Positions 956-39,608 of a stretch of 64,000 bases of DNA are shown here, in pieces (within the stretch, counting starts at the first letter, position 1; each line of letters begins with the position of its first letter). Source of the DNA: an uncultured Gammaproteobacteria bacterium (GTDB taxonomy: Bacteria; Patescibacteriota; Microgenomatia; PFEM01; DATLAM01); assembly GCA_964566925.1 (NCBI GenBank), contig CAZMIZ010000001.1, positions 219,968 to 283,967 on the forward strand, written 5' to 3'. Under the pieces are notes generated by a model, which saw only the letters and a list, made by a program, of their open reading frames with translations, ran no database searches and had not been told where the DNA came from. A program made the translations under genes and the position numbers.

Positions 956-1363
956 AAAATGAGTAGCCCAGAGCGACCAGGAACAATTCCGGATGCCCTA
1001 AGGATTCTAAGGAAACAGCAAAGAGGAGTAGGGAAAAAAGGATCGAGGACTCATGAAGAGACCTATTTAGATCGGGCGGCAAAATTAAAGGCTTTAGAGC
1101 TGGGCCCTTGCCGAACATGCCCGGTCCTGATCATTGGCTTGAAAGGAGAGGGAAGATTTGTAGAAGTAAGCCTAAGATGTAAGGGTGGCTTATCCCCTTT
1201 AGACCTGCACCGGCCCTACGTGAGTAGACTAGGAGAGATACCCGAGTGTGATTTTTTGACTTTTTTAAATGAGAGTGCTAAAGCTAGAGTTCCAGAGGAA
1301 AACTTGATATAATAAAGAGGCTTTAACAATCCGCGGTAGCTCAATGGTAGAGCGACCGGCTGT

Positions 1364-1910
1364 AGCACTTTGACAGTGGATTTCGTAAAATAAAGGTATG
1401 GCAGATAAGCGCAGATATAAAGACAGAGCTGGATATTTGATTAAAGCGGTAGCAAAGCGCCGTAAGAGACTCAAAGAAAAAGCTGTCGATTATAAAGGTG
1501 GAAAATGTAGTTTTTGCGGTTATGATAGAGTGATTGACGCTTTAGAGTTTCATCATCTCGGCGCGGGTAAAAAAGATTTTGGCTTGTCTCAAAGAGGATT
1601 AACTCGTTCTTGGAAAAGGATAAAAGAAGAGCTTAATAAGTGCATTTTAGTATGCGCTAATTGCCATAGAGAAATCCACGCAGGAAAATTGCAGCCTCCG
1701 AAGGAAACTTCGGAGTGAAAACCGGGTGAATTCAGGGAAGCCTGAGGGGAAATTATAAACCGTGGTAATCCTGAGCCAAGCCCGCGAACATTTGGGTTCG
1801 GGGAAGGTGCAGAGACTAGGTGATTACACCCATGAGCGCCCGGCGCCTAAAGGCTCGTTAGTCTAAGGCGATGAGATAGTCCACGCCTTAATGAAAATTA
1901 AGGGTTAAGT
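1364..1910 (+). mobile_element. Group I intron inserted in the tRNA anticodon loop (between nt 35 and 36 if Asn reading is right)
   Basis: Intron-core-like elements seen directly: CCTGAGGGGAAA...GCCAAGCCCGCGAA (P4-P6/Q-like), GCAGAGACTAG (R/P7-like) and GATGAGATAGTCC (S/P7'-like) at ~1750-1880; intron ends in G before the 3' exon; 5' exon ends in U. Confidence 0.75.
1398..1718 (+). CDS. HNH homing endonuclease encoded inside the group I intron
   Basis: 106-aa basic protein with CxxC ... HH ... N ... CxxCH pattern (CSFCGY ... EFHHL ... CANCHREIH), typical HNH nuclease; located wholly inside intron. Confidence 0.75.
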   Translation: MADKRRYKDRAGYLIKAVAKRRKRLKEKAVDYKGGKCSFCGYDRVIDALEFHHLGAGKKDFGLSQRGLTRSWKRIKEELNKCILVCANCHREIHAGKLQPPKETSE

Positions 1911-1945
1911 GTAACCGGTTGGTTGCTGGTTCGAGTCCAGCCCGC

Positions 1946-1970
1946 GGAGCCAGTTGGAACTTATTATACC
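1946..1970 (+). repeat. Direct repeat copy 1 (tRNA 3' end plus 18 nt downstream), attL-like
   Basis: GGAGCCAGTTGGAACTTATTATACC; 23/25 identical to 4492-4516. Confidence 0.6.
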
Positions 1971-1982
1971 TAAAAAATTATT

Positions 1983-2297
1983 ATGGTAAGAAAGAAAAAT
2001 ACCAGCTCAAAACAAGGAAGAATAGACGCTAAAGCAGCTAGCATAATTGCCAAAGATTATTATGAAGAAATTACTGGTAAGGGTGAATATACATTGAGCT
2101 TGGAAGAAGTGGAGCTTTCTGAAGACGAAAAATATTGGTATATTACAATATCTATTCATACTCCAACCGCATCTCCACTCTTTGTAAGTCAAGGTTTCCA
2201 TGAAAAAATAGCTTATAAGAAGTTCAAAATAAATGCAGAAACAGGAAAGGTTTATTCGATGAAAATGATTCAATATCCTCTTGCGCCCATTAAATAA
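1983..2297 (+). CDS. Hypothetical protein; stop overlaps start of downstream PIN gene (TAATG), possible cognate partner/antitoxin
   Basis: 104-aa ORF, translationally coupled to 2297..2785. Confidence 0.5.
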   Translation: MVRKKNTSSKQGRIDAKAASIIAKDYYEEITGKGEYTLSLEEVELSEDEKYWYITISIHTPTASPLFVSQGFHEKIAYKKFKINAETGKVYSMKMIQYPLAPIK

Positions 2298-2785
2298 TGA
2301 AGCTTATTTTAGACACTCCTGTACTTTTGCTATACATGGTTGGCATTTATGATTCTGATTACATCTCTTCTTTTAAAAGAACCCATCAATATTCGAAGGA
2401 AGATTTCGTTCAAGTATCTAATATTGTTGATTCTGCAAAGGAGTTATACTTGACACCCCAAATTCTAGCTGAGCTTTCAAATATGTCGTTTGAAATTCCA
2501 GGGGGTAGGTTGAAGAAATATCTACTTAACTTGATTAAAAACTTGTCTGGTTGTAAGGAAGGATATGTTAAAATGCAAAAGCTATTAACAAAACCTAACC
2601 TAATAATTAAAGTAGGTTTTACGGACCTTTCTATTATCGAGCTATCTAAAAAGGAAAAATGTACAATCTTGACAGACGACTTTCGTTTTAATGGAATTGC
2701 TGTAGCTAGTGGTTGTAAATCTTACAATTTTACACAAATTCGAGGATTGAGTTGGTTTGACATTTATCCTCTTAGATTACAGTAG
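2297..2785 (+). CDS. PIN-domain (VapC-like) putative ribonuclease
   Basis: Acidic quartet at PIN-typical spacing: N-terminal ILDT, AEL (~aa 59), FTD (~aa 109) and C-terminal ILTDD. Confidence 0.55.
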   Translation: MKLILDTPVLLLYMVGIYDSDYISSFKRTHQYSKEDFVQVSNIVDSAKELYLTPQILAELSNMSFEIPGGRLKKYLLNLIKNLSGCKEGYVKMQKLLTKPNLIIKVGFTDLSIIELSKKEKCTILTDDFRFNGIAVASGCKSYNFTQIRGLSWFDIYPLRLQ

Positions 2786-3001
2786 TTGCAATAGATACTT
2801 TCTTGATTTTCTCCCTCAATTCTTGCACAAATTTGAAATCTTCAAAAACCTTGACTATCCTTCGCATAAATGCTTCGGATTGGCAAGTAGTATAGAAAAA
2901 CTCTTGGTTTTTTCGAGCGAATATGGGAAACAAGGTTCTTGAGCCTAGTGAAAGATTCTTATATTAAAGTTACGCCCTTCGAGCCGATGATAACGGAGCT
3001 C

Positions 3002-3030
3002 TTTACAGAGTTTTTGTTTTTAGGTATAAT
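3002..3030 (+). promoter_or_regulatory. Near-consensus sigma-70 promoter (TTTACA-17 nt-TATAAT)
   Basis: tttaca at 3002-3007, 17-nt spacer, tataat at 3025-3030. Confidence 0.45.
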
Positions 3031-3036
3031 CAACAA

Positions 3037-3213
3037 ATAGAGAGGGGATGGTGAATTTGACCAAATTTTTGACCCCCCTCGTGCGGGCTTGACTTGTACG
3101 GATATCCGTGCCATGTTGTTGGCCGAGGTTAAATAGCCAACAAGAGAGCCTAACTTGATGCCCGCTTCCAATAAAAACAAAAAACCTCTTTAATAGGGGC
3201 TTTTTTGTTTTGG
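3037..3213 (+). ncRNA. Candidate ~175-nt structured small RNA or terminator-containing leader of the downstream HEPN-like gene
   Basis: Lies between the consensus promoter and an intrinsic terminator; internal hairpins GAGGGG...CCCCCTC, CGGATATCCG, TGTTGGC...GCCAACA. Confidence 0.35.
3185..3213 (+). terminator. Putative intrinsic terminator (short hairpin + T-tract)
   Basis: cctctttaatagggg followed by cttttttgtttt. Confidence 0.35.
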
Positions 3214-3224
3214 TAAAATAAGGT

Positions 3225-3818
3225 ATGAAAAATAAAAGGGATTTATGGATTGAAATGTCTATTAGAGAGACATGGACACAGTGTCGTTTTGCCGAGATTG
3301 CTTATTCTCATATTAATCCTAAAGCCAGGAGGCCTACCGATTTAGTGTTTTCTTCGATCCACTCATTTTTATCTCATTGTGCGATGGTTTCAAAAATGCT
3401 GAAAGCTCGTTATAGTTCTACGCCAAAATCATTTTTCGCTAAGTTGTTAGAGACATTCCGAAGAAATAAAAGGAAGAACCCAATGATTGGTCAAATATTG
3501 AGTGTTCCATTAAGCTCAGTGGTTCATAACAGAAACTTTAGAAACAGCCTAGAACATTATGATAAAGAGCTAAAGAAATGGATTAAAAAATATCCGCCAA
3601 CGATAAATATTGGTACACACAATATTGGCCCAAAAAGCATGTTTAAGGGGAATATTGTCTTCGTCAGTCACTACGATCCAACAAACGATACTTTTACATT
3701 TGTTGATGATGATTTTAACTTGGGTGAATTAAACGAAGAGGTTAGTGAGATTAAAAATCTAGCGGATGGGTGGATAAAGAAAGTCGAGAGAGGCATACTT
3801 AAAACGCCTTTTATCTAA
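3225..3818 (+). CDS. Hypothetical protein with HEPN-like R-x4-H motif (Abi-like RNase candidate)
   Basis: Motif VHNRNFRNSLEHYD (R-N-x3-H) in 197-aa protein; AT-rich islet gene. Confidence 0.45.
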   Translation: MKNKRDLWIEMSIRETWTQCRFAEIAYSHINPKARRPTDLVFSSIHSFLSHCAMVSKMLKARYSSTPKSFFAKLLETFRRNKRKNPMIGQILSVPLSSVVHNRNFRNSLEHYDKELKKWIKKYPPTINIGTHNIGPKSMFKGNIVFVSHYDPTNDTFTFVDDDFNLGELNEEVSEIKNLADGWIKKVERGILKTPFI

Positions 3819-3916
3819 GTTTAAGACCTAGAAAGGCAAAGCTATGGCAAAATCGCGAACAGATAAGTGGTATAAAAAGGAGATCAGACATTTAATTATT
3901 AATCTTAAAAAAAGAG

Positions 3917-4378
3917 TTGATTAAAAGTGTTGCTCTTAAAAAAGACCAAAAAAAACTATTACAAAATGTTTTGTATGTTCATAATAGTGTCGAAAAAGGT
4001 CTTAATTTAATGATTACGACTAAGCTTTTGCAACCAATTGTCTCCAAGCCAGGTGATAAGGCTGAAGATTTAATGAAAAGGGTGTTAAAACATGTAAGGA
4101 CCGGCCAAATAGTCGGGATGATAAATTTTCAAAGAAAACTTAAAATTGCCAAAGACTTTAGCTTGCTCTCGTCTTCAGAAATAAAGACGTTCTCTCACCT
4201 AAATGACCTTAGAAATGATTTTGCCCACTTTAGGTCAAAAAATATTAAAGACGATTTAGTCTACTACCACAATTCATATAAGCTTTTACTAAAGGCAAGA
4301 GATCTAATAAATTCCCTAGTGGAGAAAACTCTTGCTGAAGAAAATATGGCAGTTTCCCCAGGAGAATGGTCTTCCTAG
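3917..4378 (+). CDS. Hypothetical protein with HEPN-like R-x4-H motif
   Basis: Motif LNDLRNDFAHF (R-N-x3-H) in 153-aa protein. Confidence 0.45.
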   Translation: MIKSVALKKDQKKLLQNVLYVHNSVEKGLNLMITTKLLQPIVSKPGDKAEDLMKRVLKHVRTGQIVGMINFQRKLKIAKDFSLLSSSEIKTFSHLNDLRNDFAHFRSKNIKDDLVYYHNSYKLLLKARDLINSLVEKTLAEENMAVSPGEWSS

Positions 4379-4491
4379 GATTAGTGTCTTTTGCTTTTAT
4401 TAGGAAGTTTTTAGGAATTGATAGCTTGCCGGATAACTTGGGAGGGCTAAAAAGTTTTCAGTAAACCAGTTTCGAAGATTGTATGCGGTTT

Positions 4492-4516
4492 GGAGCCAGT
4501 TGGAAGTTATTATCCC
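4492..4516 (+). repeat. Direct repeat copy 2 (degenerate tRNA 3' end + flank), attR-like
   Basis: GGAGCCAGTTGGAAGTTATTATCCC; preceded by degenerate T-arm-like CAGTTTCGAAG...GCGG. Confidence 0.6.
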
Positions 4517-4562
4517 TTTTAAATAACTTGGATGTCCCATTCTTTGCGAGTAAAATAAAATT

Positions 4563-4895
4563 ATGAAAGTTAATCTGGTGCCAAAAACTAAACTAGGTAA
4601 GTGGTCGCTTGGGCTTATAATTGCTATGCCGATCTTGTTTTTCATTGGTTCATCATTCACCAACTCTTTGTATCAATCAGTTTCTTCGGGGAGGACTATT
4701 TTGGAAGACATTATTAGAAGACCGGCCTTAGCTCTGACAATGCTTTCGGGAATGGTTACCGGAGTTTCAGCCTTTTTCGTGGGGATGATAGCGATAATAA
4801 AAGAAAAAGAGCGGGCATTGTTAGCCTATGTCGCGACTTCAATCGGGCTGCTGTTTATGTTATTTCTCATGGGTGAGGTCCTATTTCCCCATTAG
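4563..4895 (+). CDS. Hypothetical membrane protein
   Basis: 110 aa, 3 hydrophobic segments. Confidence 0.5.
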   Translation: MKVNLVPKTKLGKWSLGLIIAMPILFFIGSSFTNSLYQSVSSGRTILEDIIRRPALALTMLSGMVTGVSAFFVGMIAIIKEKERALLAYVATSIGLLFMLFLMGEVLFPH

Positions 4896-4940
4896 CGATT
4901 TCCTCCCTCAATCCCTGCACTCTTTTATTGATGATAAATA

Positions 4941-5759
4941 TTAAGATGAGGGTTGTTTAAACAGGCGTTGAGCTTCGTTTCTAGCTTTCTTGAGTAAGGC
5001 CGGGGGCAGTTTTTCTTGGGCATCCTTTGTCAGTAAATCATGGCTAAAAACAATTCCCCTGCGAAGGATTTGTTTTCTTTCATCGTTGTTTAAGCTGCTA
5101 AGACAAGTTACCGGGTGGAGGTTGCTTTTCTCAATCAGAAAGCGGAGGCTTTCTTTGGGTGGGTAATCCCAACTAAGAACCATTAATTTGACGCAGCGAG
5201 CATATTTAATTGCCTGACTGGTGACTTTGGTGTTGGTGACCAACCAGCCTTGATTAAATTGACCGGCTTGAGCCACATCCAAGAAGCGGGCTTGGGTGTA
5301 AAGAGCGTCCTTAACCTTGCTTTTGGTTCCCGGCCGATTATGAAACTTGCATTCAATCATCCAAGATTGGCTTCCCTTTTGAGCAATGACATCAATTTCG
5401 TGGCTAATACAGCGCCCTTGAATAACCTGATTGATTTCAGTCCGATAATCCTGACGGGAGAGCACCCCGGCCACGAATTTTTCAAAAGGATAACCAGAAG
5501 GACCCAAGGACATAATCGCTTCCTTAAGATTATATTTTAGAGACAGGGGGTGTTTTAACTGATTAAGTAAACGATAAACTTCCTGGTAGATTTTTTTGGT
5601 GGGAATACCGTCGTAAAGTTGTTTTTGAAGATGAGCCAGAATTTGGCTAATGAGCGCTTCGTCAGCTCCGGCTCTTTGTAAAGAGCTTCTCACTTTTTCT
5701 TCTGAGAAAGGTTGATACTCTCCTGAGGCCTTTTTTACTCTTGTTTGGGAAGCCTTCAT
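4941..5759 (-). CDS. ATP-cone domain fused to Mrr-like (PD-(D/E)xK) restriction endonuclease domain
   Basis: N-terminal RVKKASGEYQPFSEEKVRSSLQRAGA (ATP-cone); HEIDVIAQKG...WMIECKF (D...ExK nuclease core). Confidence 0.7.
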   Translation of the reverse strand: MKASQTRVKKASGEYQPFSEEKVRSSLQRAGADEALISQILAHLQKQLYDGIPTKKIYQEVYRLLNQLKHPLSLKYNLKEAIMSLGPSGYPFEKFVAGVLSRQDYRTEINQVIQGRCISHEIDVIAQKGSQSWMIECKFHNRPGTKSKVKDALYTQARFLDVAQAGQFNQGWLVTNTKVTSQAIKYARCVKLMVLSWDYPPKESLRFLIEKSNLHPVTCLSSLNNDERKQILRRGIVFSHDLLTKDAQEKLPPALLKKARNEAQRLFKQPSS

Positions 5760-10857: not shown

Positions 10858-11586
10858 ATGAAGAAACTGAAAAAGTCTTTCCTGATTTTAGCGATTGTTG
10901 GTCTTGTTTTCCTCCTCTGTGGGTATTTTCTTTTTCAACTGAGTAAATCCCGGTCATTTCAATTTTTCGGCGGCTTGATTCAGCGAGTGGATACTGACCA
11001 AAAGGTGGTGGCTCTAACCTTTGATGATGCCCCCGTTCCTTATAGTGATGATGTTTTGGAAATCTTGGCTGAAAGGGATGTTAAAGCCACTTTTTTCGTT
11101 ATCGGCCAGGCTCTAGAAAAATTTCCTCAAGAAGGTAAAAACATTGTCCAGGCCGGCCACGAGCTGGGTAATCATTCTTATTCTCATCAGAGGTTTATTC
11201 TTAAATCACAATCCTTTATTGATGCCGAGATCCAAAAAACCAATAGTTTAATCAGAGACACGGGGTATGAGGGGGAGATTACCTTCCGTCCTACTTACAG
11301 CAAAAAACTAGTCGGTTTACCTTGGTATCTTCATCAGCACAACATTAAAACAATTACGTGGGATGTGGAACCAGACACTTATGCGGATCACTTGGAGGAG
11401 GGGGAGTCAAAAACTGAATTTCTGGTTAGTTATACGCTCGAACACACCAGGCCTGGTTCGATTATCTTGCTTCATCCCTTCTGCGAATCTTGCGTGAGTG
11501 ACAGACAGGCAATCGGCAAAATTATAGACGAGCTTCAAGCGAGAGACTATAACTTCGTCACTATCTCGGAGCTATTGAAAAGCTGA
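10858..11586 (+). CDS. Polysaccharide deacetylase (NodB homology domain)
   Basis: TFDDAP ... HELGNHSYSH motifs; N-terminal TM. Confidence 0.8.
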   Translation: MKKLKKSFLILAIVGLVFLLCGYFLFQLSKSRSFQFFGGLIQRVDTDQKVVALTFDDAPVPYSDDVLEILAERDVKATFFVIGQALEKFPQEGKNIVQAGHELGNHSYSHQRFILKSQSFIDAEIQKTNSLIRDTGYEGEITFRPTYSKKLVGLPWYLHQHNIKTITWDVEPDTYADHLEEGESKTEFLVSYTLEHTRPGSIILLHPFCESCVSDRQAIGKIIDELQARDYNFVTISELLKS

Positions 11587-11631
11587 TTTCAAGCCTTATT
11601 AAATCTTTCAATTTAAGGTAAAATAGAAAAG

Positions 11632-12105
11632 GTGATGAAACGGATTTTCAGTTTGATTTTAGCAATTTTAATTTGCCAGGCAGCCGGCCTGATTGGTTCA
11701 ATTTTTACGGCCCCGGCGATTCCCGCCTGGTATGCCGGACTGGCAAAACCAAGTTTTAGCCCGCCCAATTGGCTTTTTGCTCCTGTTTGGCTGATTCTTT
11801 ACACCCTGATGGGAGTGGCCGCTTATTTGATTTGGGAGAAGGGGATTGGCAAGAAAAAAGTCAAGACGGCGCTGACTATTTTTACTATCCAATTAGTTCT
11901 TAATTCTTTTTGGTCAATTATCTTTTTTGGTTGGCGCTTGCCCCAATACGCTTTTTTGGAAATTATCGTCCTCTGGTTTTTTATTTTGTTAACCCTTTTG
12001 AATTTTTACAAAATTTCAAGAACGGCTGGCCTCCTACTAGTGCCTTACCTCTTCTGGGTCAGCTTTGCGGCCCTTCTTAATTATTCGATTTTTAAGCTTA
12101 ATTAA
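11632..12105 (+). CDS. tspO: TspO/MBR tryptophan-rich sensory protein
   Basis: 5-TM 157-aa protein, W-rich, PPNWLFAPVW motif. Confidence 0.75.
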   Translation: MMKRIFSLILAILICQAAGLIGSIFTAPAIPAWYAGLAKPSFSPPNWLFAPVWLILYTLMGVAAYLIWEKGIGKKKVKTALTIFTIQLVLNSFWSIIFFGWRLPQYAFLEIIVLWFFILLTLLNFYKISRTAGLLLVPYLFWVSFAALLNYSIFKLN

Positions 12106-12120
12106 ACTTTTTAATTTACC

Positions 12121-12450
12121 ATGAGGGTTTGGGATCTTCCACCAGCGCCTTTTTGTAAAAACCATCTTTTAGGCGAACACGCCGAGATCCACGCTATTTG
12201 GTCAATTATTACGCAAGGAAAAGAAGGCTATAGCCGCCATCCCGAAGTTGGGCGTTGGCGCGGCAAACTCAAGGCGCTTTACTCAAGACACCATCAGCTG
12301 GCAATGGAATTAGAAAAAAGAGGTTATTCTCATCAGAGCCCGCTTGATATTGAACTGGCCAAAGGAAAGGCGGCTCAAGACAAATTGATTGATTCTCTTC
12401 AAAAACAAAAGGAAATTCTTAAAAATAAAAAATGTGGCTGTCGGGTTTAA
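12121..12450 (+). CDS. Pyrimidine-dimer DNA glycosylase (DenV/endonuclease V)-like protein
   Basis: MRVWDL...NHLLGEHAE N-terminus resembling the DenV family. Confidence 0.45.
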   Translation: MRVWDLPPAPFCKNHLLGEHAEIHAIWSIITQGKEGYSRHPEVGRWRGKLKALYSRHHQLAMELEKRGYSHQSPLDIELAKGKAAQDKLIDSLQKQKEILKNKKCGCRV

Positions 12451-12456
12451 TGATGT

Positions 12457-12915
12457 TTATTCAATTTTCTTAATTCTTCCTGAAAAAGTCGTTGTTTGCC
12501 CTTCTCTTTCTAGCTGATAAGAAAATTTTTCGCCTTCTTTTTTGCCTAGGATGGCTTTGCCCAGAGGTGAGTCTGGGGTTAAAAGCTGGATACCACTGAG
12601 GTTAGCTGGCCGGTTGACCAAATAAAAATAATCCTCCCCGTTTTCGTCTTCAAGGTTGATAAAAGAAACCGGCTGAGCGATTTTAACGATTTCCTCTGAA
12701 GCCGCTTCGATCTCTTTTTTTAAGGCCATTAAATTGGCCAAGGACTCTTGGGTGATCCGATCAGCCTCTTCAAAATAGCGGCGGTCGCCTTGCATTGATC
12801 GAGAAAAACCCTTGGCTCTTTTAGCGGCGGTCGCGCTTTTTTCCGCCAAGACCCTGACTCTCTCTATTTCTTGATTGAGTTTTTCTAAAAGTTCACTTTT
12901 TCTTGTTTTGTTCAT
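12457..12915 (-). CDS. greA: Transcription elongation factor GreA
   Basis: C-terminal SPLGKAILGKKEGEKF FKBP-like domain. Confidence 0.8.
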   Translation of the reverse strand: MNKTRKSELLEKLNQEIERVRVLAEKSATAAKRAKGFSRSMQGDRRYFEEADRITQESLANLMALKKEIEAASEEIVKIAQPVSFINLEDENGEDYFYLVNRPANLSGIQLLTPDSPLGKAILGKKEGEKFSYQLEREGQTTTFSGRIKKIE

Positions 12916-38919: not shown

Positions 38920-39462
38920 ATGAAAAAGCTATTGGCAGCTTTAATTTTAATTGGTTTGGGAGTGGCGGGGAGGACTGTTTTCCATCTTGCTCCCAACGTG
39001 GAGATGGTTACCTTAGCCTCGTTTTTGGCCGCCACCTATTTAGGGCGGAAATATGCCCTTTTGGTTCCTTTTGTAATCATGGTGATTACCGATACCTTGA
39101 TCGGGAACACCCACATTTTTATTTTTACCTGGTCGGCTTGGTTGATGATTGGGCTTTCCGGTTTGATTTTAAGAAAAACAAGCGGTCTTAAACTAATCGG
39201 TGCTGCTGCCGGAATGGGAATTTTAACTTCTTTATTTTTTTATCTTTACACCAATTTTGGCGTTTGGATTCTTGATTCTTGGGGAATGTATGACCGAAGC
39301 CTGACGGGATTAATTAATTGTTACGTCATGGGATTGCCTTTTTTGAAAGTCAATCTTTTGGGTAATTTAATTTTTGTTCCCGCCGGCTTTTCTGTAGCCG
39401 AATTGCTCTTTCGAAAAGAAAAGATCTTTAGTTTAGCGAAAGTTAAACAGTTGACATTTTGA
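38920..39462 (+). CDS. Membrane protein, ECF-transporter S-component-like
   Basis: 180 aa, 5-6 TM. Confidence 0.45.
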   Translation: MKKLLAALILIGLGVAGRTVFHLAPNVEMVTLASFLAATYLGRKYALLVPFVIMVITDTLIGNTHIFIFTWSAWLMIGLSGLILRKTSGLKLIGAAAGMGILTSLFFYLYTNFGVWILDSWGMYDRSLTGLINCYVMGLPFLKVNLLGNLIFVPAGFSVAELLFRKEKIFSLAKVKQLTF

Positions 39463-39469
39463 AAATTAG

Positions 39470-39564
39470 CTCTAAGCACAGGAAACACCGGTAAAAGCCG
39501 GGGCTGTGCCGCAACTGTAACCCCGCCCCACTTGAGGCGGGGAAGCCAGAACACTGGCTTAGAG
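39470..39564 (+). ncRNA. Unassigned structured RNA element
   Basis: P1 CUCUAAGC/GCUUAGAG encloses hairpins CCGG-uaaaag-CCGG, CCCCGCC-ccacuugag-GGCGGGG and GCCAG-aaca-CUGGC. Confidence 0.3.
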
Positions 39565-39608
39565 AAAGTTATTCGTCCTCTCGAGCAAGGGGAGAAGGCT
39601 AGCGATGA

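Follow-up and report, generated by a model that had tools for sequence, protein, structure and literature searches.

A tRNA-Asn-linked islet in a Patescibacteria genome, probably the decayed remnant of an integrated element with three independent nuclease modules

Cis-mobilisable elements, known from the literature on integrative and conjugative elements of Streptococcus, are att-flanked, recombinase-less remnants of integrative elements. Islands of the Islander type (PMC4383910) combine an intact tRNA gene at one end with, at the other, a direct repeat that overlaps the tRNA 3’ end, and they have a foreign composition and accessory or defence cargo. An "asymmetric 3’ end" sublocation has been described for integrases that target tRNA genes (bioRxiv 10.1101/2020.11.02.365908). 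Solitary HEPN RNases are found in defence islands and integron cassettes and include PDB entry 3jrt, AbiJ/AbiU2, and restriction-modification solos (Anantharaman et al. 2013, PMC3710099). The locus described here lies in a 64,000-nucleotide stretch (the window) of a Patescibacteria genome, on contig CAZMIZ010000001.1. Proteins of the window are recorded both on a 297.7-kb NCBI contig and on an identical Logan contig. Nucleotides 1953-4491 of the window, directly downstream of an intron-split tRNA-Asn(GUU) gene, hold four genes and are referred to here as the islet. With a probability of roughly 60%, the islet is the decayed remnant of an element integrated at the tRNA-Asn gene, carrying three independent nuclease modules and not a single system.

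The islet shares with Islander-type islands the intact tRNA at one end, the tRNA-overlapping repeat at the other, the foreign composition, and the type of cargo. It differs from them in having no integrase, in being just 2.5 kb long, in having no documented empty site, and in duplicating only 7 nucleotides of the tRNA, the rest of its repeat being downstream flank. The repeat falls in the asymmetric 3’ end sublocation. The boundaries, genes, and control sequences are as follows.

1946-1978, plus strand: direct-repeat copy next to the tRNA (attL-like), made up of the final 7 nucleotides of the tRNA and 26 nucleotides of flank.
1983-2297, plus strand: gene 1, 104 amino acids, small PepSY-like partner of the PIN gene (from the list of open reading frames, ORFs).
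2297-2785, plus strand: gene 2, 162 amino acids, PIN-domain protein and predicted RNase (from the fold model and acidic residues).
3002-3030, plus strand: strong sigma-70-like promoter, TTTACA and TATAAT with a 17-nucleotide spacer, 11 of 12 matches.
3037-3209, plus strand: structured non-coding stretch ending in a terminator, fold energy −59.1 kcal/mol.
3225-3818, plus strand: gene 3, 197 amino acids, motif R106-N-S-L-E-H111-Y-D113, probable HEPN-like RNase (from the family profile and model).
3844-4378, plus strand: gene 4, frameshifted and HEPN-like, codons 1-24 at 3844-3915 and the rest at 3917-4378.
4492-4524, plus strand: distal copy of the direct repeat (attR-like; repeat search, blastn, and shuffles).

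The two repeat copies match at 28 of 33 positions and share an exact 14-nucleotide core, GGAGCCAGTTGGAA; the sequence of the tRNA-Asn flank tied to the repeat is GTTGGAAGTTATTAT. When the tRNA 3’ half and its flank are compared with both strands of the whole window, the distal copy scores best apart from the query itself (blastn E 6.6e-5), and its score was reached in 0 of 300 local shuffles. The tRNA contributes only GGAG and CCA to the repeat, and the other 26 nucleotides are downstream flank. The islet has a GC content of 0.346, the lowest among all 2.5-kb windows of the 64 kb (mean 0.422, standard deviation 0.024), and the value returns to 0.42 in the ORF at 4563-4895, after the distal repeat. 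A tblastn search of the islet (E ≤ 10) and of the 64-kb window (E ≤ 1e-3) found no recombinase homologue. Its three queries were one tyrosine integrase and two enzymes of the serine family, a large recombinase split over two ORFs and a small one of the resolvase type. The repeat overlapping the tRNA, the anomalous composition, and the lack of a recombinase together make a tRNA-anchored segment without an integrase the best reading of the locus.

A preliminary description, made from the sequence alone, had proposed such an integrase-less element next to an intron-containing tRNA, with a sharp fall in GC content 3’ of it. The tRNA intron and the fall in GC are confirmed, and the element is supported as the best reading. 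It had also described an attL/attR pair in which a degenerate copy of the tRNA T-arm and acceptor preceded the matching flank. The repeat itself is significant, but the T-arm/acceptor copy (4470-4491) is at chance level and was rejected, with 1621 of 5000 shuffles scoring equally (p about 0.32).

Under the preferred reading, site-specific integration of DNA at the very 3’ end of the tRNA-Asn(GUU) gene would have produced the repeat. The recombinase and most of the integrated element would since have been lost. What remains would be bracketed by the imperfect 33-nucleotide repeat, whose 14-nucleotide core includes the GGAG-CCA end of the tRNA. The element is judged to be decayed because no recombinase homologue was found in the islet or window and because gene 4 is frameshifted. 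The cargo would consist of three independent nuclease modules, of selfish or defence type, that have accumulated there. Module i would be a PIN-fold RNase translationally coupled to a small PepSY-like protein, its likely inhibitor. Module ii would be the solitary gene 3, whose product carries its R-N-x-L-E-H-x-D site on a scaffold of four helices and which has a promoter of its own and a structured leader ending in a terminator. Module iii would be the solitary HEPN-like gene 4, a single-gene cassette that is broken here by a frameshift.

Recombinase genes are found at the same tRNA in other loci. In the Patescibacteria metagenome-assembled genome L002, a split large serine recombinase gene (11348-12839) directly follows an intron-bearing tRNA-Asn. 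Homologous large serine recombinase genes abut the tRNA-Asn 3’ end in L095, L114, L112, and L096 and read into the tRNA. All five lie on the strand opposite the tRNA, with reading frames that run into its 3’ end. The recombinase C-terminus in L095, L114, L112, and L096 is ...WLRGLDSNQQ, coded by the strand complementary to the acceptor and T-arm, while that of L002 is ...FLLRD with its stop codon inside the tRNA. In L002, no second junction copy is present within 9.5 kb. Six further loci contain a tRNA-Asn 3’ half with no 5’ half before it, and these halves are read as putative displaced att-type fragments. In several loci, partial tRNA-Asn 3’ halves start at the anticodon loop. The tRNA-Asn gene is a recurrent integration target, and the data suggest that a recombinase clade targeting it exists. 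Such tRNA-Asn-abutting large serine recombinases in several lineages, as a pointer to this clade, are a potentially useful by-product of the analysis.

These recombinase-bearing elements also bear on another explanation, in which the islet is a native, hypervariable tRNA flank filled piecemeal by one- and two-gene cassettes, and the repeat arose by local duplication or as a side effect of one such insertion. The ORF-limited homology of gene 4, which behaves as a single-gene cassette (see below), would fit this explanation, as would the GC content of 0.42 in the spacer at 2851-3150, which is near the genome value. The same is true of a repeat that holds 7 nucleotides of the tRNA and no T-arm copy, and of a recombinase remnant that could not be found in the islet or window. 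The repeat, however, begins exactly in the acceptor/CCA end of the tRNA and brackets the whole low-GC block, as site-specific integration predicts, and elements with a recombinase occupy the same tRNA elsewhere. Piecemeal filling is considered rather unlikely.

Several observations weigh against the preferred reading of a decayed integrated element. Among 31 metagenome loci with the same tRNA 3’ end, 0 have the GTTGGAA flank, so the comparison with an empty site that the preliminary description had called for found none. The closest genome is too distant for such a comparison (RpoD 71%). Displaced tRNA fragments in such islands are typically longer than the 7 nucleotides of tRNA in this repeat, and the identity of the repeat is just 85% outside the core. 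On the side of the cargo, gene 2 misses the curated Pfam PIN threshold (15.4 bits against a cut-off of 23.6), and the PIN alpha/beta fold appears in a model of modest confidence (predicted local distance difference test, pLDDT, of 62).

The islet resembles cis-mobilisable elements in having att-like repeats around its cargo and no recombination genes. It differs from them in that its repeats have diverged and no related autonomous element was identified in the genome. A still mobilisable, integrase-less islet, moved in trans by a recombinase from the genome or from a phage, would agree with a core that is intact at both ends, with the intact genes 1-3, and with the strong promoter of gene 3. 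Set against this, the two repeat copies differ around the core (5 mismatches in 33), gene 4 is disrupted, and the 64-kb window, the searched part of the 297.7-kb contig, holds no recombinase like those linked to the tRNA in other loci. Present-day mobility has a slim chance of being correct. Viral contigs scanned with the repeat core gave no match. As a whole, the islet is mostly an ordinary decayed tRNA-linked islet of a known kind. Its significance is that tiny Patescibacteria genomes also gather mobile nuclease genes at tRNA genes; the by-products of the analysis overturn no current ideas.

Two other repeats involve the islet. A perfect 14-nucleotide inverted repeat (1963-1976 and 3017-3030, ATTATACCTAAAAA and TTTTTAGGTATAAT) joins the flank of the tRNA-proximal repeat to the −10 region of the spacer promoter and brackets genes 1 and 2. 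Among the matches to the tRNA flank in the window, it ranks second (E 0.016). A second direct repeat (2805-2828 and 4897-4920, GATTTTCTCCCTCAATTCTTGCAC and GATTTCCTCCCTCAATCCCTGCAC) matches at 21 of 24 positions and is interleaved with the main pair. It was left uninterpreted, being roughly at chance level by our own estimate (about 0.07 expected). The repeat flank was also considered as a remnant of a serine-recombinase C-terminus (minus-strand G-I-I-S/T-S-N-W; compare L002, L095, and L112). This candidate was not significant, and a hidden Markov model of those C-termini failed to single out the repeat flanks in a six-frame translation of the window.

Within the islet, genes 2 and 3 are separated by a 430-nucleotide spacer. 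The promoter in this spacer is followed by a stretch of about 170 nucleotides that folds better than shuffled sequence (z −3.06). An intrinsic terminator (3185-3209, with the stem at 3185-3199 and a T-run) lies directly upstream of gene 3. Since the spacer has its own promoter, structured RNA, and terminator, the four genes do not form one operon. The structured stretch may be a leader or a small RNA. It matches no Rfam family and has no homologue in any fetched locus or upstream of the gene 3 relatives. The closest of these relatives (66% identity) has an unrelated 101-amino-acid ORF upstream in place of the leader. No tandem repeats were found in 3030-3215 by a repeat-family search or by reading the sequence; Tandem Repeats Finder was not run. 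The order of promoter, structured RNA, terminator, and gene 3 resembles type III (ToxIN-like) toxin-antitoxin systems, in which an antitoxin RNA made of tandem repeats and then a terminator precede the toxin gene. The gene 3 product, however, is helical and unlike ToxN.

The preliminary description had correctly identified four co-directional genes and had read them as one compact toxin/abortive-infection module, which would have been delivered together. Their shared direction, compactness, position within one repeat pair, and nuclease-type products all suit that idea. Comparison with other loci does not support it. A handful of loci was fetched for each module, and none of those with a homologue of one module contains another; no PIN or gene 4 homologue lies beside the gene 3 relatives in the loci examined. 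The three modules are distributed independently. The strong promoter and the terminator between genes 2 and 3, the frameshift in gene 4, and the confinement of gene 4 DNA homology to its ORF also speak against a single co-functional system, which is very unlikely.

Genes 1 and 2 overlap at TAATG (2295-2299), where the stop codon of gene 1 meets the start codon of gene 2, as expected from the translational coupling noted in the preliminary description. Gene 2 has one detectable homologue, P0002, which is 40% identical. The acidic residues D6, E59, D110, and D127/D128 are invariant between the two proteins; D6 follows beta1, E59 lies in the helix that comes after beta2, D110 follows beta3, and D127/D128 follow beta4. 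This alignment of the PIN acidic residues had been named as a check on the PIN assignment. No relevant match was obtained when a family profile of gene 2 was compared with PDB sequences, and a scan of viral contigs found no relatives of gene 2.

The ORF directly upstream of P0002, in locus L082, is homologous to gene 1 (37% identity, E 3e-11), which makes the PIN gene and its partner a conserved two-gene cassette. In L082, the cassette is downstream of a tRNA-Gln(CTG), with the partner ORF at 1.3 kb and the PIN gene at 1.8 kb, and adjoins a TIR-like gene. Gene 1 and its L082 homologue show weak, sub-threshold PepSY matches (E 0.062 and 0.012, respectively). Neither has a profile match to the antitoxin DNA-binding domains searched for (ribbon-helix-helix, AbrB, helix-turn-helix, and PhD).

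The pair resembles VapBC type II toxin-antitoxin systems in that a PIN-fold protein with acidic residues follows a small overlapping ORF and in that the pair is kept in a second locus. It is unlike VapBC in that gene 1 has only weak PepSY matches and no DNA-binding antitoxin domain, and in that gene 2 falls below the Pfam threshold with a single detectable homologue. The earlier label of VapC-like protein and partner thus stands for the PIN fold and acidic residues, but not for the profile threshold or for a VapB-like partner. Gene 1 would most likely encode an inhibitor of the PIN RNase, following toxin-antitoxin logic, and a role in defence or addiction may be envisaged for the cargo of the islet. 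A PIN protein paired with a PepSY-like rather than a VapB-type partner is a potentially useful by-product of the analysis.

Gene 3 encodes RNSLEH at 3540-3557 and belongs to a family of at least 343 representative clusters at 50% identity (full HMMER scan). In an alignment of 71 members, the motif has the consensus R-N-x-L-E-H-Y-D; D113 does not vary at all, and conservation reaches at least 90% at E15, L49, S56, R106, and H111. The AlphaFold2 model is confident (pLDDT 90.6) and shows a bundle of helices in which an insert separates the second long helix from the third. Helix 103-110 ends in the motif, after which come a small beta insert and a final helix. Gene 3 has no model match in Pfam, NCBIfam, PADLOC, or PHROGs, and 0 of the 71 family members have a HEPN match in Pfam. 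The family profile gave no match to PDB sequences, and Foldseek against PDB gave no match to a known family. Kinship with gene 4 was rejected, as hhalign aligns the two motifs with a probability of 6%. This sizeable RNase-like family, which the curated libraries do not cover, is a potentially useful by-product as well.

In the HEPN fold (PMC3710099), four helices form an up-down bundle, an insert separates helix 2 from helix 3, and the motif is found where helix 3 ends. Genes 3 and 4 resemble solitary HEPN RNases in their Rx4H motif with a polar residue after R, and the gene 3 model appears to share the core of four helices, with its insert placed after the second of them. The genes are also solitary and mobile and often adjoin restriction-modification genes. 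Unlike solitary HEPN RNases, genes 3 and 4 both stay below every HEPN profile threshold. In gene 3, the conserved acidic residue is also found in helix 1 and not in helix 2, and about 40 residues of beta insert precede the last helix. The preliminary description had named two HEPN-motif proteins. Their motifs are conserved in both families, but neither product reaches a curated HEPN threshold. HepT/MntA (HEPN-MNT) type VII toxin-antitoxin systems differ as well, since no nucleotidyltransferase gene is adjacent in the islet or beside the homologues examined. Judged by its motif and model, the gene 3 product is probably a HEPN-like, metal-independent RNase. A bolder proposal makes gene 3 the founder of a new HEPN-like RNase family, gated by RNA or controlled by an RNA antitoxin from the terminated leader, and makes the PepSY-like protein a new class of PIN partner. 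This combination is unlikely.

Relatives of gene 3 are found beside restriction-modification genes (L118, L147, and L149), beside HicAB and a displaced tRNA-Leu fragment (L122), and beside unrelated genes (L121 and L145). They are also present on 19 viral or prophage contigs, in most cases no more than a few kb from the contig end, and one of these is 0.6 kb from a serine recombinase gene. In L122 (4396-5910), a tRNA-Leu(TAA) gene has an extra copy of its 5’ half upstream (97% over 37 nucleotides) with hicBA in between. A degenerate tRNA-Leu 3’ fragment (85% over 33 nucleotides) is present 844 nucleotides downstream, bracketing a single 212-amino-acid ORF, and the gene 3 homologue is next. This is another integrase-less mini-islet arrangement.

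Gene 4 encodes RNDFAH at 4211-4228. A reading as a clean 153-amino-acid ORF was not borne out. Its homologues are 173-180 amino acids in length (177 in the three closest), are 50-77% identical, and start with MAKSRTEKWYKKEIRHLII... In translation, a homologue-like N-terminus (the first 24 codons) is encoded in another frame at 3844-3924. DNA alignment with the homologues identifies a 1-nucleotide insertion in the A-run at 3907-3913. Because of this extra base, the reading frame of gene 4 is shifted or, in the best case, a shortened product starts at an internal TTG.

The sequence L-N-D-L-R-N-D-F-A-H-F is invariant in all six members of the gene 4 family. All six also match HEPN_Cthe2314, Apea, Swt1, or RiboL-PSP at the motif, with 11-18 bits against cut-offs of 24-28, and gene 4 has weak matches to Cas13 HEPN domains too. 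The family profile had no relevant match among PDB sequences, and no gene 4 relatives were found in the viral-contig scan.

A 77%-identical homologue of gene 4 is located in L083 (3488-9764), in a 6.2-kb island between two 97%-identical copies of tRNA-Gly(TCC). This island also contains a tyrosine integrase, a DUF4145 protein, and several unannotated genes. Another homologue is located after dnaB. The nucleotide homology between gene 4 loci and the window ends at the ORF ends, which indicates that gene 4 moves alone, as a single-gene cassette.

The tRNA gene at the left end of the islet spans 1330-1952 and is split by an intron, as listed here.

1330-1363, plus strand: tRNA-Asn(GUU) 5’ exon, TCCGCGGTAGCTCAATGGTAGAGCGACCGGCTGT, ending at U35 of the anticodon loop (read from the sequence).
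1364-1911, plus strand: group I intron (Rfam RF00028), 548 nucleotides, at anticodon-loop position 35/36.
1398-1718, plus strand: HNH homing-endonuclease ORF within the intron, Pfam HNH E 0.0011, just below threshold.
1912-1952, plus strand: tRNA-Asn 3’ exon, TAACCGG...GCGGAGCCA, with the CCA encoded.

ARAGORN called no tRNA near the islet on the unspliced sequence. The joined exons gave a 75-nucleotide tRNA-Asn(GTT), which closely resembles the uninterrupted tRNA-Asn genes of the metagenome loci. The Rfam match to the intron (RF00028) covers 1636-1903 with 88.6 bits. Insertion of introns at 35/36 in Patescibacteria tRNA-Asn has already been published (Nakagawa et al., PMC13011429), and most such tRNA introns in that survey are without homing endonucleases. 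The HNH ORF in the window contrasts with this usual pattern. An HNH 69% identical occupies the same position in the tRNA intron of L110.

The last 25 nucleotides of the tRNA-Asn 3’ end are identical in the 31 metagenome loci. The anticodon loop is CTGTTAA in all but one of the 29 loci that show it, the exception being a partial tRNA-Asn copy in L108 with CTGTCAA. When genome contigs were scanned with RpoD, the closest relative was L002, at the 71% identity given above, and the remaining matches were mostly distant Firmicutes. In L002, rpoD is followed by tRNA-Asn as in the window, and the intron is at the same position.

Three further features of the window were recorded. The start regions of the HNH ORF (1381-1408), gene 3 (3208-3235), and a 110-amino-acid membrane ORF (4550-4573) share the context GTAAAATAA(A/G)GTATG or a close variant, which may be a translation-initiation context typical of the genome. 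A cobalamin riboswitch match is located at 39457-39576 (Rfam, 34.1 bits against a threshold of 31.5). The third feature is 0.4 kb past the distal repeat.

4941-5759, minus strand: Mrr-type restriction endonuclease domain fused to an ATP-cone.

In other loci, two relatives of gene 3 are likewise near Mrr-type or other restriction-modification genes.

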